From UHGV virus genome UHGV-0186582: a DNA stretch of 39,992 bases. The stretch is one strand, 5' to 3'. The stretch's first letter is position 1. Each line of letters opens with the position of its first letter. Source of the DNA: a virus. Shown here in pieces: positions 3,202 through 35,271 of the stretch. Under the pieces are notes generated by a model. It was given only the letters and a program-made list of their open reading frames with translations. It was not told the origin of the DNA and did not search any database. The position numbers and the translations under genes were made by a program.

Positions 3202-3554
3202 TACGCCTCCGATGTAACAGTCGTTATTCCATAAAGAGTGTCGATTTCAGCGGAAAACATGACACGTCGGGTCGTGGTATCCACCGTCGTATTGAAAGAG
3301 AGGATTGATTTAACGCCCCGCGTTTCGAGGATGCGCTTACGGATCGCCAGGTTGTAGGTTTCCGGCTTCTGCTTACCGAGTACGGACTGGATCCACGGAG
3401 TCCCCTCGGTGGTGTCGAGAAACCATTGCCCATACCACAATTCGAATCGCGTTTTTACCGCCTGCGCCACGGCCTCCGGTGAGTTAATCAGCCAGGTGTC
3501 ATCACCGCTGCCAAAGGTATAATCGCCATCGGCGTCTTCACGTCTGTATCGCAT
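3201..3554 (-). CDS. Baseplate wedge protein (gp25/GPW-like, Mu gp46-like)
   Basis: 117 aa; size and position between spike and J-like gene. Confidence 0.5.
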   Translation of the reverse strand: MRYRREDADGDYTFGSGDDTWLINSPEAVAQAVKTRFELWYGQWFLDTTEGTPWIQSVLGKQKPETYNLAIRKRILETRGVKSILSFNTTVDTTTRRVMFSAEIDTLYGITTVTSEA

Positions 3555-4348: not shown

Positions 4349-4765
4349 TTATGAATCGTAGGTTTTCAATTTTTCGAGTTCATCAGGAGGAAGTTCTATG
4401 AAGGTTTCCTCTGCTAATTTTATCAGCCTGGGAAGCATCGAATCAGCTTGCTGATGAGCGTTTGGGCTGATGATTGCCAATATCTGATAGTGTTCATCGA
4501 TATAAAGATGCTGAGCATATACCAAAAAATTATCACATGTCCGTTCACTCAGAGATGCTTCTGGAGGCCAGGGTTTATCGCCAGGTAGCTTTAAGTGAAT
4601 TTTCCTGATGTTGGCAGCCATCGCATCATAGTTACGTTCAAAACCGCCTAACGAACCAAAACACCAGAACTGGGAACCCTTTGAAATATAATCGGCAAGC
4701 ATTTGAGCATACTTATGTGCTGCAGCTAAATGACGCAATTCTCCCGTTATACTGACTTTTGCCAT
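4349..4765 (-). CDS. YafO-like toxin domain protein (putative mRNA interferase-type toxin)
   Basis: 138 aa; motifs LADYISKG, KIHLKLPGDKPWPP, SERTCDNFLVYAQH, YQILAIISPNAH, LIKLAEETF align with recalled E. coli YafO (TADFISYKRDG, HIHLANENNPFPP, SRTNDEAHLVYCQG, WLLIAILKPEPH, KIGKMAEAF); from memory, not an HMM search. G+C about 40 percent, below flanking tail genes. Confidence 0.5.
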   Translation of the reverse strand: MAKVSITGELRHLAAAHKYAQMLADYISKGSQFWCFGSLGGFERNYDAMAANIRKIHLKLPGDKPWPPEASLSERTCDNFLVYAQHLYIDEHYQILAIISPNAHQQADSMLPRLIKLAEETFIELPPDELEKLKTYDS

Positions 4766-4766
4766 G

Positions 4767-5339
4767 TCACATCCATTTAGGGGCGTCGGCTCCCAGCATC
4801 TTATGCGATGTAGAGATCAGTTCAATAGCCTCTTCACGGGTAACATTATCTGACAAGAGTTCAGCCAGGAAAGGCTGCGATTGCCTAACTTCAGCGGCCA
4901 ACTGAGTTGCAGTGTTCTCGACGGCGGTCAACGCACGAACATATTTGCGTTTTAATGGGCGCAACATTTGCAGATGGCCTTGCCACATAGGGGACCTTTC
5001 CGCTTCAGAGAACATATCCACTAAATGTCCTTTAGCATTTCGGCATGCCTTGGCAAGACCTTCGAGATGGGATAAAAACCCGTCCGGAAGCTCATCAACA
5101 ATGATTCTTCCATTTCGAAAAGCTTCGAGATGAGACATGCCTTCCTTCGCGGTATTTTCGATTTCTTGAGCGCGTGCAGCAATCGCGGTACAACGACGAA
5201 ATGCCTCTTCAGCATCTAATCGTTGTGGCAGTTCACAAGCATTAGAGATCAGGGGTTTGAAAGCACCGTTAACAGCTTCCTGAACCTGATTCATTTGTTG
5301 TGTAATTGTTGCCAGCGCAAATGCGTAGCTAATCGCCAT
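4767..5339 (-). CDS. Hypothetical ~190-aa protein, upstream partner of the YafO-like gene (candidate antitoxin/immunity); no recognised family
   Basis: Stop TGA is 1 nt from the downstream ATG (TGA-C-ATG); likely start is the ATG at 5339 with GAGGG RBS (ORF track starts at TTG 5345); no resemblance to YafN/Phd-type antitoxins that I can see. Confidence 0.5.
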   Translation of the reverse strand: MAISYAFALATITQQMNQVQEAVNGAFKPLISNACELPQRLDAEEAFRRCTAIAARAQEIENTAKEGMSHLEAFRNGRIIVDELPDGFLSHLEGLAKACRNAKGHLVDMFSEAERSPMWQGHLQMLRPLKRKYVRALTAVENTATQLAAEVRQSQPFLAELLSDNVTREEAIELISTSHKMLGADAPKWM

Positions 5340-27733: not shown

Positions 27734-28575
27734 GATCTGCTCCTGTAACTATCCCATGTAAACGCAAGGGTGCATCCGCCGCCATCATTCATCCTGTCAA
27801 TAACACGCTCACCAATGAATGCAGACAGTTCATCTTTGCTCTGGTTGCTAATCAGGATTGTTGGCTTCATGCGCTCGTAGCGGGTGTTGATGATTTCGAA
27901 CATGATCATCTTTTCCGCCTCGCTTCCAAACTGCACACCAACCTCATCGATAATTAGCAGGTCAGGTTTAGTGAACTGTCGGATCACTTCATCCTCTGTG
28001 CGGGTGGAGTTTTTCGACCATGTTGATTTATATTCTCTGGCAATTTTCAGCGCCGTTGTGAAAATAGCTGAGCTTTGATGTTCCGTAATTGCGTGCCGGG
28101 CGATAGCCAGTGCAAGATGATTCTTTCCAGTACCAGGCTTTCCACACATAACCAGCCCACCGCCTTTCTGTAACCTCTCAGGCCATTTGCTGGCGTATGC
28201 CTGACACACCCTGAGCACTCTCTTTGCATCGTCGTTGACTGGCTCGTAGTTCTGTAGTGTGCAACCCTTGAATCGTTCAGGAATATCAAGATTATTCAAC
28301 AGAAACTCGACATTGCGCTTACGTGATTCCTCGTCGCTTTTACTCTTCTCCGCCTGTAGCAGAATAAGCTCATCTCTCATGCATTCCGGGCATTCGCTAG
28401 GTCTTGAGGCAAACTTAATTGGCCCAGTCGAGTAACGGTTACGCTGCTCAAACTCACCATGTTTTTCACAGATGCCAGTGCCAATTTCTACAGCTGTATG
28501 CTCGATAGCAATTGGCGGAGAACTCAATTCTGCAAGTTTTTTCTCCAGTTGGGAGATCTTTTCATCCAGCGTCAT
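27730..28575 (-). CDS. Replication helicase loader, DnaC-like AAA+ ATPase (P-function analogue)
   Basis: Walker A GKPGTGKNHLA and Walker B LLIIDEVG; start taken as ATG 28575 with AGGAG RBS overlapping O stop. Confidence 0.75.
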   Translation of the reverse strand: MTLDEKISQLEKKLAELSSPPIAIEHTAVEIGTGICEKHGEFEQRNRYSTGPIKFASRPSECPECMRDELILLQAEKSKSDEESRKRNVEFLLNNLDIPERFKGCTLQNYEPVNDDAKRVLRVCQAYASKWPERLQKGGGLVMCGKPGTGKNHLALAIARHAITEHQSSAIFTTALKIAREYKSTWSKNSTRTEDEVIRQFTKPDLLIIDEVGVQFGSEAEKMIMFEIINTRYERMKPTILISNQSKDELSAFIGERVIDRMNDGGGCTLAFTWDSYRSRS

Positions 28576-28577
28576 GT

Positions 28578-29423
28578 TCACTCCTGCGCCCATGAAGGCA
28601 TTTCAGTTTGCCCGTAATCTTTGGCGGCAAAGTTTTCCTGCATAGCTCGCTGCTGCGGCCTCGGTTGAGATTTCCCCTTTGGAGTCTTGGGCTCAAAAAT
28701 CCCCTGCCAACCACTGGCGATGCTCTGGTTTATAATTTCTTCAGGTGTATATCCCTTCTCCAGACTTCTGCTTAGAACGTTGATAGCCTGAGTAATACTT
28801 TGCTTAGACTTGATCGACTTACCTATCTCCTTGCGATAGGTAACCCACGACAACCATGTTTCTGCTGATAACCAATCAGGCAACTCTGTTTCTAGCGGGT
28901 CGAACTTCTGAGAAACTTTTTTGGGGGATATAGGGGGTTTATTAATATTTTCTTTTGTCTTTAAAGAATGTCTTTTGTGTGTCTCTAACTTCGAGACATT
29001 GAGTGTCTCTAATTTGGAGACATTTTTTGTCTCTAACTTCGAGACAAAGTTGCTAACTTGGAGACACTTGCTGAATTGCCACGCAGATACCTCACTGTTT
29101 ACACCGATTTGATTTCCATCCATAAACAGGCAATTCATTGAAATCAGTTCTTTTTTAGCCTTGTTAACATTCTGCCTTGACAGTCCTGTTAACTGAGCAA
29201 TTTGCTCATCGGCTATTCGATCTGTTTTCTTATTGAACCCATATGTTTTCCGGACGTAGGCCAGCATAACTTTCAACTGGCGAGCGGTTAAATCGGCACT
29301 TGCGATAGCTTCCAGCAGCTCGTTAGCGAATCTGGTGTAACCATCATCGATATCAGCCACTCTTAGCTCCTGTTCGGCAAAGTTACCTCTGCCGAAGTTG
29401 AGTATTTTTGCTGTATTTGTCAT
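28578..29423 (-). CDS. Replication initiator O-like protein (contains ori iterons)
   Basis: 281 aa; N-terminal HTH-like region; repeated VSKLET peptide units encoded by the iterons. Confidence 0.75.
   Translation of the reverse strand: MTNTAKILNFGRGNFAEQELRVADIDDGYTRFANELLEAIASADLTARQLKVMLAYVRKTYGFNKKTDRIADEQIAQLTGLSRQNVNKAKKELISMNCLFMDGNQIGVNSEVSAWQFSKCLQVSNFVSKLETKNVSKLETLNVSKLETHKRHSLKTKENINKPPISPKKVSQKFDPLETELPDWLSAETWLSWVTYRKEIGKSIKSKQSITQAINVLSRSLEKGYTPEEIINQSIASGWQGIFEPKTPKGKSQPRPQQRAMQENFAAKDYGQTEMPSWAQE
28980..29066. repeat. Origin iterons: ~4 copies of TGTCTC-N7-GAGACA at 24-bp periodicity, flanked by AT-rich DNA
   Basis: TGTCTCTAACTTCGAGACA at 28980 and 29028, TGTCTCTAATTTGGAGACA at 29004, degenerate copy near 29050; AT-rich stretch 28925-28978. 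Confidence 0.7.
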
Positions 29424-29457
29424 AATGACTCCTGTGGATTGATCCAGTCTTTCTACA

Positions 29458-29736
29458 TCAGGCCTCGAAGAATTCGCCGTTCTTCGGGGCTTTTTCTTTT
29501 GTCAGCATTCTGGCTACTTTCTTAGCCAGTTCCGCCAACTCCTCGTCTTCAACACCCCATTCAAGAACAGCCAGAAGCATGGCCATCTTTGGGATAAAGC
29601 TGTCTTTCCATCGCGAAATTTGCGATTCATTAATCCCTAACGCGTCGGCAACCTTTCGCTGACCACGTACAGCAATTCGATTCAGGATGTTGCTTGTAAT
29701 TGCATTCGCTTTCTTGCGAGTACTTGTAAGTTCCAT
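29458..29736 (-). CDS. cII: CII-like transcriptional activator
   Basis: 92 aa; ESQISRWKDSFIPKMAMLLAVLEWGV closely matches lambda CII KSQISRWKRDWIPKFSMLLAVLEWGV. Confidence 0.8.
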   Translation of the reverse strand: MELTSTRKKANAITSNILNRIAVRGQRKVADALGINESQISRWKDSFIPKMAMLLAVLEWGVEDEELAELAKKVARMLTKEKAPKNGEFFEA

Positions 29737-29784
29737 ATGTAAGTATTTCCTTAACTAATAAGAAGTTATGCGCATCAACTTATG

Positions 29785-29827
29785 CGCGTTGTATTCCCGC
29801 ATTTCGGCGGGAATGAGGACCATGACT
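29785..29827 (-). promoter_or_regulatory. nutR: boxA (GCTCTTTAACA) and boxB hairpin (TCCCGC-CGAAAT-GCGGGA) between cro and cII
   Basis: Read on minus strand; boxB 29785-29802, boxA 29817-29827. Confidence 0.5.
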
Positions 29828-29844
29828 GTTAAAGAGCAATTTGC

Positions 29845-30030
29845 TTATGCCGCTTTGCGGTAAGCGCTTTCTTGATACTTCAGGGCGCCAGCTGTAACGA
29901 CTTCCAGTCGATAGGCGTCTTTCTCTGGGATGACTTCCTTCCACTGAGAGACTGCTGCGTCGCTAATGCCTAACGCTTTAGCTACAGCACGCTGGGTTCC
30001 GAAGTGGTCGATAACATCTTTCTTGTACAT
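29845..30030 (-). CDS. cro: Cro repressor (P22 type)
   Basis: 61 aa MYKKDVIDHFGTQRAVAKALGISDAAVSQWKEVIPEKDAYRLEVVTAGALKYQ matches recalled P22 Cro. Confidence 0.85.
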   Translation of the reverse strand: MYKKDVIDHFGTQRAVAKALGISDAAVSQWKEVIPEKDAYRLEVVTAGALKYQESAYRKAA

Positions 30031-30044
30031 AGACTCGCTCCGAA

Positions 30045-30110
30045 ATTAAAGAACACTTAAATTATCAACTAAAGGAATCTTAAGTCAAGTTTATTTAAGA
30101 TGTCTTAACT
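30045..30110. promoter_or_regulatory. OR region: three P22-type 18-bp operators with divergent PR (minus) and PRM (plus)
   Basis: ATTAAAGAACACTTAAAT (30045-30062), ACTAAAGGAATCTTAAGT (30068-30085), ATTTAAGATGTCTTAACT (30093-30110) vs recalled consensus ATTTAAGATATCTTAAAT; PR -35 TTGACT / -10 GATAAT on minus strand (30061-30088). Confidence 0.6.
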
Positions 30111-30761
30111 ATGAAAACTCAATTGATGGGAGAGCGCATTCGCGCTCGGAGAAAAGAACTCAAGATCAGGCAGGCCGCACTTGGAAAGATGGTCGGCGTG
30201 TCTAATGTTGCCATATCTCAGTGGGAACGCTCTGAGACAGAGCCAAATGGAGAGAATCTTCTCGCCCTGGCTAATGCGTTGAAGTGTTCCCCTGACTATC
30301 TGATGAAAGGAGAGGAAAGTCTTTCAAACATTGCCTATCACAGTAGGCATGATCCAAGAGGGTCATTCCCTCTGATTAGCTGGGTGAGCGCAGGGTGCTG
30401 GATGGAAGCTGTAGAACCATATCATAAGCGTGCAATAGATAACTGGTACGATACAACCGTAGACTGTTCAGAAGATTCGTTTTGGTTGGACGTGAAGGGA
30501 GACTCAATGACGGCTCCAGCCGGTCTCAGTATCCCTGAAGGAATGATAATACTCGTCGATCCTGAAGTAGAGCCGCGTAACGGGAAACTTGTAGTTGCAA
30601 AGCTCGAAGGAGAAAACGAGGCAACTTTCAAGAAGTTAGTTATTGATGCAGGCAGGAAGTTTCTAAAACCACTTAACCCACAATATCCGATGATCGAGAT
30701 CAACGGAAACTGCAAAATCATCGGCGTAGTTGTCGATGCAAAACTAGCAAACCTTCCATAA
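30111..30761 (+). CDS. c2: C2 repressor (P22 type, LexA-like autocleaving)
   Basis: 216 aa; MKTQLMGERIRARRKELKIRQAALGKMVGVSNVAISQWERSETEPNGENLLAL... matches recalled P22 C2. Confidence 0.9.
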   Translation: MKTQLMGERIRARRKELKIRQAALGKMVGVSNVAISQWERSETEPNGENLLALANALKCSPDYLMKGEESLSNIAYHSRHDPRGSFPLISWVSAGCWMEAVEPYHKRAIDNWYDTTVDCSEDSFWLDVKGDSMTAPAGLSIPEGMIILVDPEVEPRNGKLVVAKLEGENEATFKKLVIDAGRKFLKPLNPQYPMIEINGNCKIIGVVVDAKLANLP

Positions 30762-30783
30762 GGGGGCATTCGCCCCTTTTTTT
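30762..30783 (+). terminator. Rho-independent terminator after c2
   Basis: GGGGC-ATTC-GCCCC followed by seven T. Confidence 0.5.
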
Positions 30784-30851
30784 ATTTCCTTTAAAAATCA
30801 AAGCTAAACTTAAGTTACGAAAGAAAATTTAAGTTTTCTTCAAAAATACTC

Positions 30852-30880
30852 TTGACCATTAATTAAAGAGATCTTAAATT
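30852..30880 (+). promoter_or_regulatory. pL candidate with overlapping OL operator
   Basis: -35 TTGACC (30852-30857), 17-bp spacer, -10 TAAATT; operator-like ATTAAAGAGATCTTAAAT (30862-30879). Confidence 0.4.
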
Positions 30881-30926
30881 TAAGCCATCAGCAGGAAGCT
30901 GGTAGCCAAACGGAACAGATTGGCAG

Positions 30927-30967
30927 GCTCTTTAACATTGATGGGATTGTCCCGCCGAAATGCGGGA
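30927..30967 (+). promoter_or_regulatory. nutL: boxA (GCTCTTTAA) and boxB hairpin identical to nutR
   Basis: boxA 30927-30935; boxB TCCCGC-CGAAAT-GCGGGA at 30950-30967. Confidence 0.5.
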
Positions 30968-31074
30968 ACCAAAGAGTAGTTGGCTTTGGGGTGATGTGAA
31001 GTGCAGCTGCACGACGGCAACCGGAAGATAAGCACCCGGCGCGTCACCGCCAAAGTCAATCATCGGAGGTCAAC

Positions 31075-31347
31075 ATGACAGTAGTCATTACATATCTGGC
31101 TGACGATAACGCCAGAAATCGCCGCAGAGCACGCAGACAGGCTCAACGTGAACAGGCAATGCAAGAGCAGCGACTGGCGCGAAAAATTGCGCTAAAGCTC
31201 TCTGGTTGCGTCAGAGCAGATAAAGCAGCATCACTCGGAAGCATTCGCTGCAAGAAGGCAGATGAATGCAGTGGAAGTATTTGCCTGCCAAACGTAGCCA
31301 TTTACGCGGCAGGCTACAGGAAATCCAAACAGCTGACAGCAAGATGA
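31075..31347 (+). CDS. N-like transcription antiterminator (P22 gene 24-like)
   Basis: 90 aa; arginine-rich motif NARNRRRARRQAQ; C-terminus LPNVAIYAAGYRKSKQLTAR resembles recalled P22 gp24; GGAGG RBS. Confidence 0.65.
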   Translation: MTVVITYLADDNARNRRRARRQAQREQAMQEQRLARKIALKLSGCVRADKAASLGSIRCKKADECSGSICLPNVAIYAAGYRKSKQLTAR

Positions 31348-31364
31348 CTTGTGTTGGTCGCCAG

Positions 31365-31410
31365 AAAATGAAATTAGGCAGCAAACCACTTATTTGAGGT
31401 GAAATATGGA
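31365..31410. repeat. Repeat A copy 1 (~46 bp, second copy at 32505-32550, one mismatch)
   Basis: AAAATGAAATTAGGCAGCAAACCACTTATTTGAGGTGA(A/G)ATATGGA read in both places. Confidence 0.8.
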
Positions 31411-31573
31411 AATTGAAATACCAGACAGCTTCGACCCTGAATGGCAAGCAATGATGCTTCGCCAGTTAGCTGGGAACATTGAGGCACTTAAAAATCGAGA
31501 AGATGAACCTGACGAACTACTTATCGACTGCGAGGAAATTATCGAATCTCTTCGCGAATATTCAGGATTTTAA
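31406..31573 (+). CDS. Small acidic hypothetical protein (55 aa)
   Basis: ATG inside repeat A copy 1; MEIEIPDSFDPEWQAMMLRQLAGNIEALKNREDEPDELLIDCEEIIESLREYSGF; below ORF-track cutoff. Confidence 0.3.
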   Translation: MEIEIPDSFDPEWQAMMLRQLAGNIEALKNREDEPDELLIDCEEIIESLREYSGF

Positions 31574-31598
31574 GGCCGAATAGTCGGCCTTTATTTTT
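31574..31598 (+). terminator. Rho-independent terminator (tL1-like)
   Basis: GGCCGA-ATAG-TCGGCC followed by TTTATTTTT. Confidence 0.5.
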
Positions 31599-31615
31599 GG
31601 CATAAACAACAGAGG
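31586..31615. repeat. Repeat B copy 1 (30 bp exact, second copy 32821-32850)
   Basis: GGCCTTTATTTTTGGCATAAACAACAGAGG identical at both sites, each ending in the AGAGG RBS of a paralogous gene. Confidence 0.85.
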
Positions 31616-31620
31616 TGGAT

Positions 31621-31881
31621 ATGACCGTAGAAAGAATGAAAAGGCCGTGGAGTGTTGTTGGCACTGGATTCAACGATGATGGTGTTTATGTCACGTTTGA
31701 CGATACAACCATACATCGAGGTGATTTGAGATTGATGGAGGCAGCTCCTGATTTGCTTGAAGCTCTGCAAGCGATGCTAAACAAGGCATACAAGCAAAGC
31801 TGGAATGACCATTATCCTGATGAAGTATCGAAAGCACTGTCAGCAATTAGCAAAGCTATTGGTGAAGATTATTACGATTGA
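31621..31881 (+). CDS. Hypothetical protein, paralogue of 32856-33152
   Basis: Shares AAPDLLEALQ...AISKA.G motif with second copy; ATG 31621 after repeat-B RBS. Confidence 0.5.
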   Translation: MTVERMKRPWSVVGTGFNDDGVYVTFDDTTIHRGDLRLMEAAPDLLEALQAMLNKAYKQSWNDHYPDEVSKALSAISKAIGEDYYD

Positions 31882-31886
31882 GGTTA

Positions 31887-32156
31887 ATGATGAAATTCAA
31901 ATTGAACGATGAAGTTAAATGGTCAAGCTCATCAAACGGTGTAACGAAGGTAAAAATCGGGTTTATCGTCGAGGTGATTCCTCCTGGTGTCAACGTAAAA
32001 AAATTCGAACTAGGCCGTCTGCTAGATGCACCTGGCCTTCCGAGGAAAGAAGAGAGCTATATAGTTTGTGTAGGTCCAAGACCCGGATCTCGTGCCAAGC
32101 CAAAATATTACTGGCCGCGAGTTAATAACCTGCGTCACTTACACGATGACAAATAG
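31887..32156 (+). CDS. Hypothetical protein
   Basis: ATGATG start with GAGG RBS; ~90 aa. Confidence 0.45.
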   Translation: MMKFKLNDEVKWSSSSNGVTKVKIGFIVEVIPPGVNVKKFELGRLLDAPGLPRKEESYIVCVGPRPGSRAKPKYYWPRVNNLRHLHDDK

Positions 32157-32504
32157 AAGTGAGTATCCTTGTTTTACTTTTCCAGCTTATTACGATTGAG
32201 GAGAGACGGAAATGATAGATGGGAAATCTGTGAAGATATTTGACGAGCAAGCTACACTGCCTTGATTTTATGTTAGGGATATTTCTTCGTTCTATGACGA
32301 ACCAACATTTGATATTTTATTTGTCGATGATGATGGTATATGTCGGTATTCGAACGATATTTTTAATTCAGAGTAAGAAGCCATCAATTACGCAGAGAAA
32401 TGCAATGCCAAAACAGCCGACTATGAACGCTGGGATTACTGCAAACATAATCGCTGGATTCTGACTCAACACATTGAAGCCAAATCCTCCTAGCTCGCAA
32501 TCAC

Positions 32505-32550
32505 AAAATGAAATTAGGCAGCAAACCACTTATTTGAGGTGAGATATGGA
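32505..32550. repeat. Repeat A copy 2
   Basis: See copy 1. Confidence 0.8.
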
Positions 32551-32615
32551 AGAAGAATTTGAAGAGTTCGAAGAGCATCCGCAGGATGTGATGGAACAAT
32601 ACCAGGACTATCCGT

Positions 32616-32816
32616 ATGACTACGACTATTGATACAAATCAATGGTGTGGACAATTCAAGCGATGCAATGGATGCAAGCTGCAATCGGAATACATGGTTA
32701 AGCCTGAAGAAATATTTCCTGTAATGGAAGATGGGAAATATGTCGATAAATGGGCAATACGAACGACGGCAATGATTGCCAGAGAACTTGGTAAACAGAA
32801 TAACAAGGCTGCCTGA
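32616..32816 (+). CDS. Hypothetical small protein (Cys-motif CGQFKRCNGC)
   Basis: 66-aa ORF; its start overlaps a 28-codon acidic mini-ORF (32546-32632) so the true coding unit is uncertain. Confidence 0.35.
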   Translation: MTTTIDTNQWCGQFKRCNGCKLQSEYMVKPEEIFPVMEDGKYVDKWAIRTTAMIARELGKQNNKAA

Positions 32817-32820
32817 TGGT

Positions 32821-32850
32821 GGCCTTTATTTTTGGCATAAACAACAGAGG
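32821..32850. repeat. Repeat B copy 2
   Basis: See copy 1. Confidence 0.85.
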
Positions 32851-32855
32851 ATAAC

Positions 32856-33152
32856 ATGGAATTTAAAGGTACTGAAGGCAAGTGGGAAATAATGATGGAT
32901 GGCGATGAGATTAAAATAATCCAGGCAGACTCACTTGAAAATGGCGCAGGCTGGCGTTCGTATATTGCAATCTGTGAGGAAGTTCAATGTATTGAAGATG
33001 CCAATCTAATAGCGGCAGCACCTGACCTTCTCGAAGCACTTCAGTTATTACTTAAGCAATCCAAAAATAGAACAACGACAACATATCCAGAATGGTATGG
33101 AGCTGTTAATAAAGGTCTTGCAGCAATCAGCAAGGCTCTGGGAGGTGAATGA
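32856..33152 (+). CDS. Hypothetical protein, paralogue of 31621-31881
   Basis: 98 aa; IAAAPDLLEALQLL...AAISKALGGE. Confidence 0.5.
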   Translation: MEFKGTEGKWEIMMDGDEIKIIQADSLENGAGWRSYIAICEEVQCIEDANLIAAAPDLLEALQLLLKQSKNRTTTTYPEWYGAVNKGLAAISKALGGE

Positions 33153-33352
33153 TGTGCGAGTTTTATGAAGCAGATATCAAACGCCCAGAAATGGCAAGTG
33201 ATGCGACATTACGTGATTACTTCGCGGCAAAGGCTATGCAAGCAATGATTAGCAATCCATCGATTATCGATAATGATTCTGATGGAGTTGTTAATTATGC
33301 AGCAAGCGCTGCATATAAGTTTGCAGACGCAATGCTCAAAGCTCGCGAATAA
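33149..33352 (+). CDS. Hypothetical protein
   Basis: 67 aa, ATGA overlap with upstream stop. Confidence 0.45.
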   Translation: MMCEFYEADIKRPEMASDATLRDYFAAKAMQAMISNPSIIDNDSDGVVNYAASAAYKFADAMLKARE

Positions 33353-33451
33353 GCACTGTGTATTCATTCCAACGAGTGAATACACGGAGCAATGTCGCTC
33401 GTAACTAAACAGGAGCCGACTTGTTCTGATTATTGGAAATCTTCTTTGCCC

Positions 33452-33478
33452 TCCGATGTGGGGGGCCTTTTTATATGC
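33452..33478 (+). terminator. Possible terminator-like hairpin
   Basis: CCCTCC-GATGT-GGGGGG followed by CCTTTTTAT. Confidence 0.3.
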
Positions 33479-33538
33479 ATACCAATAACGCTTCACTCGA
33501 GGCGTTTTCGTTATGCAATCAAACAGAAGGAGCATCCT

Positions 33539-33709
33539 ATGCAACAGTTCGCTATTGCAGGGGCGGCATCGGTTCGCCCTTTCAACCCGATTTTATCGGT
33601 ACAGCATTCACGAAAAAACATTTTAACCGGAGCAGACTTTAAACAACCAAGAATGAAAAGTTTGCTCGAAAAGCTTTGGGATATTTTGAAACAACAAGGC
33701 CGTCCATGA
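33539..33709 (+). CDS. CIII-like protein (FtsH inhibitor family)
   Basis: 56 aa; MQQFAIAG... and ...LWDILKQQGRP resemble lambda CIII MQYAIAG...LIDILNQPGVP; AGGAG RBS. Confidence 0.45.
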   Translation: MQQFAIAGAASVRPFNPILSVQHSRKNILTGADFKQPRMKSLLEKLWDILKQQGRP

Positions 33710-33864
33710 GTTTTACAGATAACTGGTCAGACGAAGAATTCATTCGTCAGATGAAAGAATTAATCGGTAACGAAGGAGATATTCATGTCACTTGCAACCA
33801 CAGTGAAGGAGAGCAAGTTACAGAGACGCATGTACACGCAGAAAGCTCTCTGGTATCGCCATAA
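33706..33864 (+). CDS. Hypothetical small protein (kil position)
   Basis: 52 aa from ATG overlapping cIII-like stop. Confidence 0.3.
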   Translation: MSFTDNWSDEEFIRQMKELIGNEGDIHVTCNHSEGEQVTETHVHAESSLVSP

Positions 33865-33965
33865 TGGCGACCGCGAAGGAATGCGGGTATGCCTTAATTT
33901 GTCCCGAGTCGAAGTATTAAATCAGCGTTATTTCCTTGGGTCATGTCCATTCTGAGAACAATCAT

Positions 33966-34571
33966 ATGAGCAAAGAATTTTACGCAAGACTGGCAGTTAT
34001 TCAGGAAAATCTGAACGCGCCCAAGAATCAGTACAACTCATTCGGTAAATATAAATACAGAAGCTGCGAAGACATTCTTGAAGGCGTTAAGCCGTTACTG
34101 AATGGTCTGTTTTTATCAATCAGCGATGAAGTTGTGTTGATTGGTGATCGGTATTACGTGAAAGCCACGGCAACTATTACCGATGGCGAAAACAGTCATA
34201 CGGCAACCGCTCTTGCACGAGAGGAAGAAAGCAAGAAAGGAATGGATTCTGCACAAGTTACTGGAGCTACAAGCTCTTATGCACGCAAGTATTGCCTCAA
34301 TGGTTTGTTCGGCATTGATGATGCGAAAGATGCAGATACAGACGAGCATAAACATCAGCAGAACGCAGCAGCAAAGCAATCAAAACCATCACCTACATCT
34401 GAACAGGTTCTAAAAGCATTCACTGACGCAGCAATGCAGAAAAACACCGTAGAAGAGCTTAAACAGGCGTTCGCCAAAGCGTGGAAGATGCTCGAAGGCA
34501 CACCGGAGCAGCACAAAGCGCAGGACGTTTACAACATCAGACGAGATGAATTAGAAGGAGCGGCTGCTTAA
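33966..34571 (+). CDS. erf: Erf single-strand annealing recombinase (P22 Erf-like)
   Basis: MSKEFYARLAVIQENLNAPKNQYNSFGKYKYRSCEDILEGVKPLL... matches recalled P22 Erf; start taken at ATG 33966. Confidence 0.8.
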   Translation: MSKEFYARLAVIQENLNAPKNQYNSFGKYKYRSCEDILEGVKPLLNGLFLSISDEVVLIGDRYYVKATATITDGENSHTATALAREEESKKGMDSAQVTGATSSYARKYCLNGLFGIDDAKDADTDEHKHQQNAAAKQSKPSPTSEQVLKAFTDAAMQKNTVEELKQAFAKAWKMLEGTPEQHKAQDVYNIRRDELEGAAA

Positions 34572-34951
34572 TGGCACATTCGATTACTGTAAGACTAAAC
34601 AAGCCCGTAAGAGAGTTTCAGGCCGGGGAAAATATCGGATTCAACATCCGTGCTGGCGTTCAGTATTACGATCGCCAGACAAAAAAGAAAGAATGGACAA
34701 ACTACAGCGCCGTTGTATTTGCCAAGCCGGGAGCGCAAGCGGATTACTACCGTAGTGTTCTTGTTGAAGGTGGAATTGTGGAAATTACCGGAGAAAACAT
34801 CAGGGTTGATGTTTATCAGGGGCAAAATGGTCAATCAATCACTCTTGAATTACTGAATGCAAAGATTGGATTTGCAGCTTCAGGAAATGGCCAGCAGCAA
34901 AGTAGCAATCATCAAAATCATCCTGAATACGACGATTCAATTCCCTTCTAG
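34571..34951 (+). CDS. Single-stranded DNA-binding protein (SSB-like)
   Basis: 126 aa ending YDDSIPF, like the E. coli SSB acidic tip DDDIPF. Confidence 0.6.
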   Translation: MAHSITVRLNKPVREFQAGENIGFNIRAGVQYYDRQTKKKEWTNYSAVVFAKPGAQADYYRSVLVEGGIVEITGENIRVDVYQGQNGQSITLELLNAKIGFAASGNGQQQSSNHQNHPEYDDSIPF

Positions 34952-34974
34952 ATTAGCAAAATAAGGCTCCCATT

Positions 34975-35271
34975 ATGCCAGCGCCTCTGTATGGTGCGGA
35001 TGACCCGCGCAACTGCTCCGGTAGCTCCAAGGCGGAGGTGCTGGAAAATATCAAAAACAATTTCGACACGTTTATCGATCTGCCACCAGAAACAAAAGCA
35101 GAACGGATGTACCGACGCGATATACAACTCGCGTTAAAAGATGAGAAGGACCGAACAAACGAAACAGCAATGAGACCGTTGCGAAAAGCGACAATAGACA
35201 AATTCCCTGAATATATCGACCCGCGCCTGCGTAATTACCGCTCACGCTATGGCGCTATCAGTAATGACTGA
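34975..35271 (+). CDS. Hypothetical protein; possible Abc2-like anti-RecBCD (size/position only)
   Basis: 98 aa directly downstream of erf/ssb. Confidence 0.35.

Follow-up and report, generated by a model that had tools for sequence, protein, structure and literature searches.

Two gene modules lying one behind the other in the pL operon of the phage sequence analysed here (the window, 39,992 nt in full) carry the same pair of short repeats, which raises the question of whether they are recent copies of a single module, as the first-pass annotation held in its title, or units of different origin that share only their joints. We consider the second answer, taken as a whole, to be likely: the region would belong to the early-left (pL) operon, antiterminated by N, of a temperate Escherichia coli phage, the small accessory genes of this operon would be interchangeable cassettes set between short portable junction sequences, and two units of different ancestry would here be stacked head to tail. 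The stacked pair is uncommon, yet it is an ordinary outcome of phage recombination and not a recent gene duplication.

The assignment of the modules to a pL operon was borne out by the order of a cI-like repressor, a nutL-like boxA/boxB stretch and N upstream of them (Table 1). The repressor has an identical counterpart in the metagenome contig L215, for which Pfam HTH_3 and Peptidase_S24 domains are precomputed, and the cro-side region of CUS-3 and other phages has an inverted counterpart of the nutL-like stretch at 82% similarity, as expected of a nutL/nutR pair. The N protein has the arginine-rich N-terminus of its class (ARM NARNRRRARR), covers positions 13–100 of the 100 in the Pfam N_peptide profile (PF25694), that is, to the end of the profile, and is preceded by the putative boxA/boxB. 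A C-terminus of the phage 21 type lies downstream in another frame, and on this ground we suspected a frameshift relative to phage 21 N; the suspicion was rejected, the 90-aa form being complete by Pfam and of the same length as HK140 N and mEp213 N2, to which it shows about 95% protein identity. The phage as a whole combines this lambdoid early region with a structural arm resembling that of the myovirus vB_EcoM-611R5. A promoter scan returned fewer sites than in shuffled sequences and none within the modules, and an Rfam search of 30700–34000 with E values up to 1 gave nothing relevant.

Table 1. Features of the early-left region, in order along the window (SD, Shine–Dalgarno sequence).
Feature	Position	Strand	Description and evidence
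cI-like repressor	30111–30761	+	216-aa ORF; upstream of pL, same strand as the operon
nutL-like site	30927–30968	+	boxA-like GCTCTTTAACA and boxB-like hairpin CCCGCCGAAATGCGGG; read from sequence, putative
Antiterminator N, HK620/HK140 type	31075–31347	+	90 aa, intact; Pfam N_peptide E = 1.2e-15; phrog_271
Junction A, copy 1	31345–31411 (repeat core 31362–31411)	+	out-of-frame N 3' relic, stop/SD overlap, ATGGAA start
Slot-1 cassette	31406–31573	+	55-aa acidic protein, pI 4.05; phrog_7393 E = 5e-24
Hairpin 1 fused to junction B, copy 1	31572–31615 (stem 31572–31591; B 31586–31615)	+	hairpin with U-run; ends in SD AGAGG
Y8K6-family paralogue 1	31621–31881	+	86 aa; phrog_1273 E = 4e-18; PF27050 Phage_P22_Y8K6 precomputed for identical protein
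Junction C, copy 1	31869–31883	+	TTATTACGATTGAGG; 3' end of third N C-terminal type (...KSIPAYYD*) and SD
88-aa basic protein	31890–32156	+	pI 9.9; phrog_11941 E = 7e-45
Junction C, copy 2	32180–32201	+	22-nt relic of the third-type N 3' end and SD
Decayed gene	32212–32493	+	93 codons; two in-frame stops, TGA 32263 and TAA 32374
Junction A, copy 2	32502–32551	+	N 3' relic, SD and ATGGAA; mini-ORF copy 32508–32537 inside
Slot-2 part 1, lambda orf28 homologue	32546–32632	+	28 aa, pI 4.05, 12 acidic residues; phrog_16060
Slot-2 part 2, ral (restriction alleviation)	32616–32816	+	Pfam Ral (PF11058) E = 2.9e-46, residues 1–66 of 66
Hairpin 2 fused to junction B, copy 2	32805–32850 (stem 32805–32826; B 32821–32850)	+	hairpin with U-run
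Y8K6-family paralogue 2	32856–33152	+	98 aa; phrog_1273 E = 8e-32; PF27050 precomputed for identical L215 gene
67-aa ORF	33149–33352	+	coupled to paralogue 2 by ATGA overlap
Conserved non-coding block	33353–33477	+	long hairpin and counterpart of lambda PreS/LPR1 small-RNA stretch; tL2a-like terminator 33448–33466 and U-run
erf	33966–34571	+	Rad52-like single-strand annealing recombinase; PF04404 ERF precomputed for identical L215 gene

Both repeats on which the modules had been defined are real. Repeat B is identical at 30 of 30 positions, as claimed, and the 46 bp with one mismatch reported for repeat A form the inner part of a 50-nt repeat with two mismatches (48/50), in which the longest perfect run is 38 nt. 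The cores of A and B each occur exactly twice in the window when up to three mismatches are allowed; none was expected from 100 shuffles. A third short repeat, C (TTATTACGATTGAGG at 31869–31883 and 32187–32201), had been missed in the first-pass annotation.

All three repeats lie at gene boundaries: A covers an N stop codon, an SD and the next start, B a terminator arm and the next SD, and C an N-type stop codon and an SD. Junction A is the 3'-terminal part of the antiterminator gene N in a common allele (...KLGSKPLI*), the same DNA encoding the C-terminus ...VGRQK(I/M)KLGSKPLI* of N in phage 21, Sf101 and CUS-3; in copy 1 the relic amounts to the last 17 codons of an N gene of this type. SD and stop codon overlap (TGAGGTGA), and ATGGAA, where the next gene starts, comes after them, so that whatever gene stands behind the junction is provided with a ribosome-binding site and a start. 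No significant RNA structure was predicted for A (z = +0.36). Copy 1 of junction C is fused in frame to paralogue 1, whose last codons (...GEDYYD*) fall within it, and copy 2 is 100% identical to the end of an N variant present in three other loci.

The nine-codon mini-ORF MKLGSKPLI described earlier is indeed present in both copies of A (31368–31397 and 32508–32537); as a gene it does not stand, and is best read as a relic of the N 3' end. Neither of its ATG codons is preceded by an SD. Among 188 occurrences, ATG is found at the start position in 132, and ATT, ATA, CAT or TTA in nearly all others. In 79 of 181 occurrences of A the frame extends upstream without a stop for at least 80 codons, forming the end of an N-sized long ORF. 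The element shows neither a ribosome-binding site of its own nor conservation as an independent ORF and is unlikely to be a translated leader peptide.

Junction B, for its part, is made up of the right arm of a terminator-like hairpin, its U-tract and the SD of the next gene (AGAGG). In agreement with the earlier description of a terminator-like element fused to B, a hairpin with a U-run overlaps the left end of the repeat in both modules. The stems, of 8 and 9 pairs, are followed by TATTTTT, giving the GC-rich hairpin and U-tract of a terminator, and the 41-nt hairpin windows have folding energies of −15.6 and −16.8 kcal/mol (z = −4.4 and −4.2). The last codons of ral form the left arm of hairpin 2. 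Termination at these sites is predicted from this pattern, and the hairpins would attenuate transcription only where RNA polymerase is not N-modified. We found no usable literature on a named terminator at B; the named terminator of lambda, tL2a, is the downstream PreS terminator, that is, the next hairpin and not that of B.

What lies between and behind the junctions differs from one unit to the other. Unit 1 consists of A, the 55-aa ORF, B, Y8K6 allele 1, the 88-aa ORF and the decayed gene, and unit 2 of A, orf28, ral, B, Y8K6 allele 2 and the 67-aa ORF. The two modules had been described as equal in make-up, each with A, a short acidic ORF, a hairpin fused to B and a paralogous gene. These elements are present in both, including the acidic ORFs, which share a pI of 4.05, but the contents are unequal, since module 2 also holds ral, overlapping the 28-aa ORF, and module 1 the 88-aa gene and the decayed gene. 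The exact 55-aa protein recurs in 986 blocks of the assembly collection; among ten listed places a Y8K6-family gene comes directly after it in five and ral is beside it in none. In contigs that carry the paralogue 1 protein and extend past its end, the 88-aa gene always comes next. For the decayed gene, locus L220 has an intact 93-aa homologue and L218 the same two stops; a frameshift was considered and rejected, since the reading frame stays aligned with that of L220 and the two stops are nonsense substitutions.

In unit 2, the 28-aa ORF has the amino acid sequence of lambda orf28 and overlaps the start of ral by 17 nt. Its neighbour can be identified as ral with some assurance from the full-length profile match, the lambda-like position after orf28 and 96% DNA identity to lambda ral. 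By comparison with lambda, paralogue 2 and the 67-aa ORF are inserted together between B and the PreS region; the non-coding block that follows is 94.4% identical to lambda 34045–33920, and PreS is reported to be flanked by ral and ea10, its 3' end being tL2a (bioRxiv 10.1101/2024.10.31.621285). The 55-aa, 88-aa, 28-aa and 67-aa proteins had no match in Pfam or NCBIfam. A PADLOC search likewise gave no match, for the Y8K6 proteins as for the 55-aa and 88-aa ones.

The relationship between the two Y8K6 genes bears directly on the question of duplication. That they are paralogues with a common motif stands in so far as both match phrog_1273 over their full length (residues 1–82 of paralogue 1 and 1–97 of paralogue 2), but a direct BLASTP alignment is confined to the C-terminal 50 aa (48% identity, E = 2e-5). 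They are identical at 33 of 76 amino acids and at 51% of DNA positions, with a dS of about 3.4 over the C-terminal 45 aligned codons. A Pfam and NCBIfam search with the Y8K6 proteins gave no match, in a Pfam copy that perhaps did not include the PF27050 model, and a PDB sequence search with paralogue 2 returned nothing credible. AlphaFold2, run on a two-sequence alignment of the paralogues, produced four N-terminal strands and a C-terminal helical hairpin at a mean pLDDT of 60, too poor for a fold search.

A recent tandem duplication in situ of a module made of A, an ORF, B and the paralogue, followed by divergence, would account for the A-B-A-B order, the spacings of 1140 and 1235 nt, the presence of two genes of one family and the near identity of the repeats. 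It should also leave similarity throughout the unit and low synonymous divergence between the copies, and neither was found. At the DNA level the modules resemble each other in A and B alone; the genes from A to B (the 55-aa ORF as against orf28 and ral) are unrelated, and the synonymous divergence of the paralogues is saturated while A and B are 96–100% identical. Module 2, being 96% identical to lambda, has a separate ancestry of its own, and both Y8K6 alleles are found alone after B in many other phages. Moreover, the repeats turned out to be ordinary conserved ribosome-binding and terminator elements present at many unrelated genes, and with that the title of a duplicated module falls. We give recent duplication very little credence.

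The accompanying suggestion, that the repeats are recombination hot-spots which shuffle early-operon cassettes, fared better. A was found at 264 places in 260 GenBank phage records and B at 221 places in 218, nearly always in single copy per record, with phage 21, HK97 and Stx phages among the carriers; in lambda, B directly follows ral and a diverged 3' part of A precedes orf28. A and B bracket a hypervariable accessory-gene position, the 'ral slot', and a Y8K6-family gene is usually next after B. In a census of about 200 IMG/VR and GenBank loci, the ORFs starting in A fell into 12 families without detectable similarity and those ending at B into 13; the loci had been fetched by exact matches to A or B, so that conserved junctions are over-represented and the census covers phages with A or B. 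In three loci the slot is empty and 26 nt separate A from B. Three nucleotides ahead of the ATG is a polymorphic site that carries either G or T with each major cassette (34 and 41 cases for orf28, 9 and 13 for MEFHE, 9 and 6 for MEALV), and each of the seven commonest cassettes was found with both upstream contexts.

Close relatives of the window point in the same direction. Those with a core from B1 to A2 at 98–99.8% identity hold other slot genes, and the similarity breaks at the repeat edges. Loci L216 and L029 match the window at 99.2% over 31571–32181 and 97.2% over 32518–33129 and have another gene between A1 and B1. In L218, L220 and L222 the same layout is seen, with B, paralogue 1, C, the 88-aa ORF, C, the decayed gene and A in this order; L218 and L220 match 31570–32539 at 99.8% and 98.1% and then diverge. 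The similarity to L216, L029, L218 and L220 starts or stops at 31408–31411, 31570–31571, 32518 and 32539, and endpoints pile up at the repeat edges, in a sample that is biased.

We envisage that different lambdoid genomes recombined out of register, at such junctions or close to them, and so gave rise to the stack; examples would be junction C, at which the end of a Y8K6 gene is an N-type 3' end, and the joints with microhomology that follow the 88-aa ORF. Homologous recombination within A and B would later have exchanged the contents of the slots, with Rad52-like recombinases of phages, Erf among them, as the catalysts. Erf is encoded by the phage itself and could make use of short homologies. 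Recombinases of the Erf type handle short or diverged homologies no less well than Red, and the perfect runs in A and B, of 38 and 30 nt, exceed the minimal pairing segment of 23–27 bp reported for Red-beta (PMC3945230). The role of A and B as substrates for homologous recombination, and the history given here, are reconstructed from comparisons. Some joints do not lie at shared sequences, namely that of the 88-aa ORF flank with C or A and that of the HK620-type N C-terminus; these look like illegitimate or microhomology events, and homologous exchange at the junctions therefore cannot be the whole story.

Such joints lead to the alternative that A and B are conserved solely for their expression signals, that is, SD, start and terminator, as could be the case. 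According to this Hendrix/Juhala model genes enter at random by illegitimate recombination, selection retains joints at gene edges, and the doubled layout is one more illegitimate insertion. Several joints at microhomology or at no homology speak for it, as do the lack of RNA structure in A, which looks like a plain translation-initiation region, and the inner stem of the B hairpin, which is not the same in the ral type as in the other, with pairing kept; illegitimate recombination is also how most mosaic joints are generally explained (PMC2327257, PMC3029335). However, at least 12 unrelated genes lie between identical flanks that reach the start codon and begin at the stop codon, so that many independent insertions at the same two positions would be needed. 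Polymorphisms inside A also reassort freely with the cassettes, and the repeats are long enough for Red/Erf-type pairing. As an exclusive account we regard the alternative as improbable. The two models may both apply, with first capture illegitimate and later spread homologous.

An artefact of assembly, in which two co-resident lambdoid prophages or phages were joined through their shared repeats of 30–50 nt, might be suspected from the matches of the window to metagenome contigs and from the search of 5426 complete E. coli genomes, none of which has the doubled layout over at least 80% of 31300–33200 in one place; nor does any GenBank phage. Yet the sequence of 28121–35140, some 7 kb, is 100% identical in L215 and L217, which come from two different metagenome records. 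The core of paralogue 1, C and the 88-aa ORF, followed by a second A and in several cases by a second B and a Y8K6 gene, recurs in several independent assemblies, among them at least one NCBI genome assembly, and a doubled layout is found in GCA_001285485.1 (L216) and in the IMG/VR contig L029. The repeats are shorter than ordinary reads, and the isolated phage mEp213 has a comparable doubling with two N genes. A chimera is accordingly very improbable, and the doubled state appears to be rare, with two copies of each junction in one genome in about 1–2% of related loci. Capture of cassettes by a dedicated enzyme acting on A and B as sites, integron-like or homing-like, would fit the precise cassette edges, the empty slots and the stacking, but no integrase, HNH or other nuclease gene lies beside the slot in the window, the junctions have no inverted-repeat or attC-like structure, and A is simply the end of an N gene. 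We attach hardly any weight to it.

A bolder form of the cassette model, which we hold to be possible but doubtful, sees the pL operon beyond N as an 'integron without an integrase', an array of cassettes that homologous recombination drives, with portable linkers flanking every cassette and out-of-register crossovers stacking accessory genes. The linker would then be the N 3' end and SD on the left and the terminator arm and SD on the right, a phage could accumulate several accessory, probably counter-defence, genes in tandem, and the four N-end relics A1, C1, C2 and A2 would each mark one of four captures made in succession. Selection for having ral together with other accessory genes would maintain the doubled state, which would then be no passing intermediate. 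For the cassette model in its plainer form, the locus offers a clear worked example of the swapping of small early genes among lambdoid phages, with junctions readable to the nucleotide. Annotators should treat ral and orf28 as genes, the mini-ORF and the short relics as none and 32212–32493 as a pseudogene. Known counter-defence genes (Gad1, anti-RecBCD) lie nearby in related loci, and searches of prophages from A to B would yield candidate genes of this kind. The direct repeats, 38 and 30 nt long, lead one to expect deletions of 1140 bp and 1235 bp, respectively.

Among known systems, the closest are the short conserved boundary sequences of lambdoid phages, proposed as recombination sites by Clark et al. 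(2001, on phage HK620) and Susskind and Botstein (1978), as cited in PMC3029335 and PMC2327257. As described there, these sequences likewise are short, lie at gene edges, are common to phages with non-homologous neighbours, coincide with mosaic breakpoints and have been proposed as sites of module exchange. The early-left operon is among the regions concerned, and the GenBank record of CUS-3 has a feature 'bsq5; boundary sequence' beside N; we found no usable literature on the 'bsq' label, and the HK620 record has no boundary-sequence features in this region. Junctions A and B share the gene-edge location, the unrelated neighbours (12 families after A, 13 before B) and the coinciding breakpoints. 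The window differs in holding two copies of each junction and in that A and C are relics of alternative N 3' ends. The locus is a rare instance of this known mosaicism and represents no new type of element or mechanism.

In lambda, the order is N, sieB, orf28, ral, PreS/tL2a and ea10, and A2-orf28-ral-B2 of the window (32521–32848) is 96.3% identical to lambda 34381–34055. Lambda has one unit only, with sieB between N and the slot and no gene after B, whereas the window has a second unit upstream and a Y8K6 gene and the 67-aa ORF between B and the PreS region. Silas et al. (bioRxiv 10.1101/2023.04.06.535777) describe accessory regions of phages as hot-spots whose variable genes often serve in counter-defence; the one with ral is among them, and other accessory genes take the place of ral there in some phages. 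Variable small non-essential genes and conserved flanks are common to both descriptions; those regions are defined by flanking conserved genes, ours by junctions at the nucleotide level. The early-left operon of mEp213 (PV340538.1) shows a heteroallelic tandem doubling of the post-pL segment, in the order N (lambda-type ARM), A, a gene, B and a Y8K6-like gene and, further on, a second N, a gene, the 3' part of A, a gene and B. Its second N is of the HK620 type and 96.8% identical to N of the window, but the doubled unit includes N itself, whereas the window repeats only relics of the N 3' end. Integron arrays offer a functional analogy only: promoterless small genes in one orientation are served by a single promoter, and a short conserved element bounds each. 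Unlike integrons, the window has no integrase and no structured sites of the attC type; its junctions are gene ends and ribosome-binding sites, on which general or phage homologous recombination would act.

Both A and B, the short repeats that respectively open each module and precede its Y8K6-family paralogue, were recovered at the positions reported in the first-pass annotation. The core of each repeat occurs exactly twice in the window with up to three mismatches allowed, and in none of 100 shuffled sequences. The other proposed elements of a module, namely a short acidic ORF, a terminator-like element fused to B and a gene related to that of the other module, were found in both units; the hairpins and U-runs of the terminator-like elements overlap the left end of B. 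The assignment to the pL operon was also upheld, with a repressor, a nutL-like site and N upstream and homologues of kil and erf downstream. Four features had been missed: ral, which overlaps the 28-aa ORF in module 2, the 88-aa and 93-codon genes downstream of paralogue 1 in module 1, and a third short repeat, C. The 28-aa ORF is identical in amino acid sequence to lambda orf28, and window 32521-32848 shows 96.3% identity to lambda 34381-34055.

Coordinates of the repeats, module genes and operon landmarks (window positions unless a locus is named)
Feature	Position	Details
cI-like repressor	30111-30761	upstream of modules
nutL-like site	about 30927-30968	read from sequence; upstream of N
N	31075-31347	Pfam N_peptide, match reaching profile end
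Repeat A (A1, A2)	31362-31411 and 32502-32551	48/50 identical; longest perfect run 38 nt
Acidic ORF, module 1	31406-31573	55 aa, pI 4.05
Repeat B (B1, B2)	31586-31615 and 32821-32850	30/30 identical
Paralogue 1	31621-31881	related to paralogue 2
Repeat C	31869-31883 and 32187-32201	TTATTACGATTGAGG
88-aa gene, module 1	31890-32156	phrog_11941
93-codon gene, module 1	32212-32493	two in-frame stop codons
Acidic ORF, module 2	32546-32632	28 aa, pI 4.05
ral, module 2	32616-32816	Pfam Ral, E = 3e-46
Paralogue 2	32856-33152	related to paralogue 1
Erf	33966-34571	encoded in window
Empty-slot form in L221, L223, L224	about 3414-3495 or 2363-2444	
Gad1 / anti-RecBCD in related loci	L218 5334-6308; L216 6980-7261; others	

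A strong terminator-like hairpin lies directly 3' of the repressor gene (30760-30779; compare tIMM annotated in HK620), followed by a promoter-like site (30852-30880), the only one on the strand near the expected position of pL. The structural arm at 1-23200 (terminase, portal, capsid, DUF3383 domain-containing protein, baseplate J and tape measure) shares about 94.6% identity with Escherichia phages vB_EcoM-611R5/606R2 and shows a relationship to Salmonella phage SEN34. This makes the phage a myovirus whose early region is lambdoid, and so a mosaic on a large scale.

The exact repeats had been taken as a sign of recent duplication, a reading that comparison of the modules contradicts. When module 1 was searched against module 2 with BLAST, A and B were the sole similarity found, and the genes occupying the two slots (the intervals between A and B) are unrelated. 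The Y8K6 proteins are identical at 33 of 76 aligned residues; their genes share 51% nucleotide identity and agree in codon at only 14 of the 31 degenerate residues they have in common, with dS about 3.4 over 45 aligned C-terminal codons. The divergence of the paralogues is old, and in other phages each allele also follows B on its own. The family (phrog_1273) is mosaic, with at least six N-terminal and at least five C-terminal types in many combinations, invariably joined at the invariant AAPDLLEALQ motif in both window paralogues and in the fetched loci; one example carries the N-half of paralogue 2 and the C-half of paralogue 1. Such mosaicism suggests either a protein built of two domains or exchange within the gene at the motif.

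The sequence of repeat A codes, in phage 21, Sf101 and CUS-3, for the final residues of N (VGRQK(I/M)KLGSKPLI, then stop); within A, a Shine-Dalgarno sequence, TGAGGTGA, overlaps the N stop codon, and the next gene starts (ATGGAA) three bases on. The window N is of the HK620/HK140 type, having a distinct C-terminal segment whose stop codon (31347) lies at the very point where similarity to the 21 type picks up again. This segment looks like a replacement within a 21-type gene; since it brings its own stop, the 21-type end persists downstream as an untranslated, out-of-frame relic. The nine-codon mini-ORF noted in the first-pass annotation does occur in both copies of A but is best taken as this relic, and no separate Shine-Dalgarno sequence serves it. 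In 79 of 181 occurrences its frame extends open through at least 80 upstream codons, so that it forms the 3' end of an ORF of N size, and its start position does not always read ATG in other phages. Folding of A revealed no RNA structure above chance, as expected for a translation-initiation region. Repeat C is a junction of the same kind for another N C-terminal type (KSIPAYYD, then stop), and several different genes come after it in other phages. The N alleles (window 31075-31411 and loci L001-L008) are three-part mosaics, in which arginine-rich N-termini (ARMs) of lambda, 21 and HK620/CUS-3 types are combined with three C-terminal types, ending in KLGSKPLI, YRKSKQLTAR or KSIPAYYD; the central segment LARKIALKLSGCVRADKAASLGS is common to 21- and HK620/CUS-3-type alleles and absent from those with the lambda ARM.

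Repeat B consists of the right arm of a hairpin and a U-tract, then GGCATAAACAACAGAGG, which bears the Shine-Dalgarno sequence of the next gene. The upstream cassette supplies the left arm, which is formed by the final ral codons in the ral type and by a separate GGCCGCATAGTCGGCC palindrome in most non-ral cassettes. These hairpins fit the terminator pattern and are predicted terminators. In lambda the name tL2a belongs to the hairpin that follows the B counterpart downstream and forms the PreS small RNA 3' end. A conserved non-coding block at window 33353-33477 (94.4% identity to lambda 34045-33920) is kept in 180 of about 200 related loci and has no Rfam family. Within it lie a perfect 14-bp hairpin (33356-33388) and, downstream, the counterpart of the lambda stretch with the Hfq-dependent small RNA PreS/LPR1, terminating in a tL2a-like terminator (33448-33466 plus U-run).

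Among GenBank phages, A occurs at 264 places in 260 records and B at 221 places in 218, each nearly always single per genome. We collected about 200 loci by searching IMG/VR for exact matches to either core and adding examples from GenBank and E. coli. Here the ORF starting in A falls into 12 families without detectable mutual similarity and the ORF ending at B into 13, while a Y8K6-family gene is the ORF after B in 87 of 101 cases. Three loci have an empty slot, A and B lying 26 nt apart with paralogue 1 directly after. Breakpoints fall at the repeat edges. A G/T polymorphism in A, three bases before the start codon, reassorts with the cassettes, being seen with every major one, and the seven commonest cassettes are all found behind an N relic as well as behind other sequences. 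Although choosing loci that carry A or B biases the sample to that extent, it suffices to show that these repeats are portable junctions flanking a hypervariable slot. The earlier suggestion of recombination hot-spots that shuffle cassettes is thus supported.

The doubled arrangement itself is rare. Two contigs, L215 (ENA ERZ28598514) and L217 (JGI 3300055616), each from a separate metagenome record, match window 28121-35140 at 100% identity, and at least 80% of the region was found in one place in none of 5426 complete E. coli genomes and in no GenBank phage. In the initial set of loci from IMG/VR and GenBank, doubling of both repeats is confined to L029, and L023 and L064 have one of them doubled. 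The A-B-A-B order recurs in L216 (GCA_001285485.1) and L029 (IMG/VR), in which paralogue 1 and the 88-aa ORF are 99.2% identical to those of the window, another gene lies between A1 and B1, and 32182-32517 is absent. L218, L220 and L222 share the B1-to-A2 layout with other genes in both slots (identity to window 31570-32539 is 99.8% for L218 and 98.1% for L220). The 93-codon gene, well conserved apart from stops at 32263 (TGA) and 32374 (TAA), shares both stops with L218; L220 and L222 carry an intact 93-aa version, and one further locus has a distant homologue after junction A. The window copy is probably a pseudogene, a gene expressed by read-through being the less likely alternative. Single-unit forms matching the products of exchange between A1 and A2 (Sf101, phage 21) or between B1 and B2 (L214) are common.

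The most economical history that we infer, at each of its four steps, would begin with a unit ending in paralogue 1 being joined out of register, at junction C, to a unit starting with the KSIPAYYD-type N end. Microhomology would have given rise to the other joints, exchange in A and B would later have replaced the slot contents, and some lineages would have deleted the decayed 93-codon gene. For such exchange, the minimal efficient pairing segment is 23-27 bp for Red-beta and 31-34 bp for RecA, and Erf-type recombinases are as efficient as Red on short or diverged homologies (PMC3945230; PMC2327257). The perfect runs in A and B both exceed the Red-beta minimum, and that in A alone exceeds the RecA minimum. 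Because the repeats are long enough, Erf-type enzymes handle short homology and the window encodes Erf, exchange probably proceeds by homologous recombination at the junctions. The main rival explanation holds that joints arise illegitimately and that conservation is limited to expression signals. The two models are compatible, in that first capture of a cassette may be illegitimate and its later spread homologous.

Only N and ral have known roles in the region. Searches of Pfam, NCBIfam, PADLOC and the PDB were uninformative for the 55-aa, 88-aa, orf28, 67-aa and Y8K6 proteins, and AlphaFold, given a shallow alignment, modelled paralogue 2 with low confidence (pLDDT 60). Since these genes sit in a known accessory region beside ral, their position suggests roles in host interaction or counter-defence. 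In related operons, the counter-defence genes Gad1 (PF25705) and anti-RecBCD (PF11043) lie a few genes downstream of the slot, which fits a view of the whole stretch as an accessory, counter-defence region.

Silas et al. (bioRxiv 10.1101/2023.04.06.535777) describe the accessory region with ral to which the slot corresponds, and module exchange among lambdoid phages through short conserved boundary sequences is an old idea, traced to Susskind & Botstein 1978 and Clark et al. 2001 (cited in PMC3029335). The isolated, viable phage mEp213 (PV340538.1) shows a comparable doubling but one that includes two N genes, arranged in tandem in the early-left operon (3210-3542 and 4695-4967), one with a lambda-type and one with an HK620-type ARM, each followed by its own cassette unit. 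Its second copy resembles the window only from just past the nutL-like site and so may lack a nut site of its own. The feature described here can serve annotation and offers a handle with which to harvest accessory genes; it is a rare doubled case of a known lambdoid-phage phenomenon, not a new kind of element.
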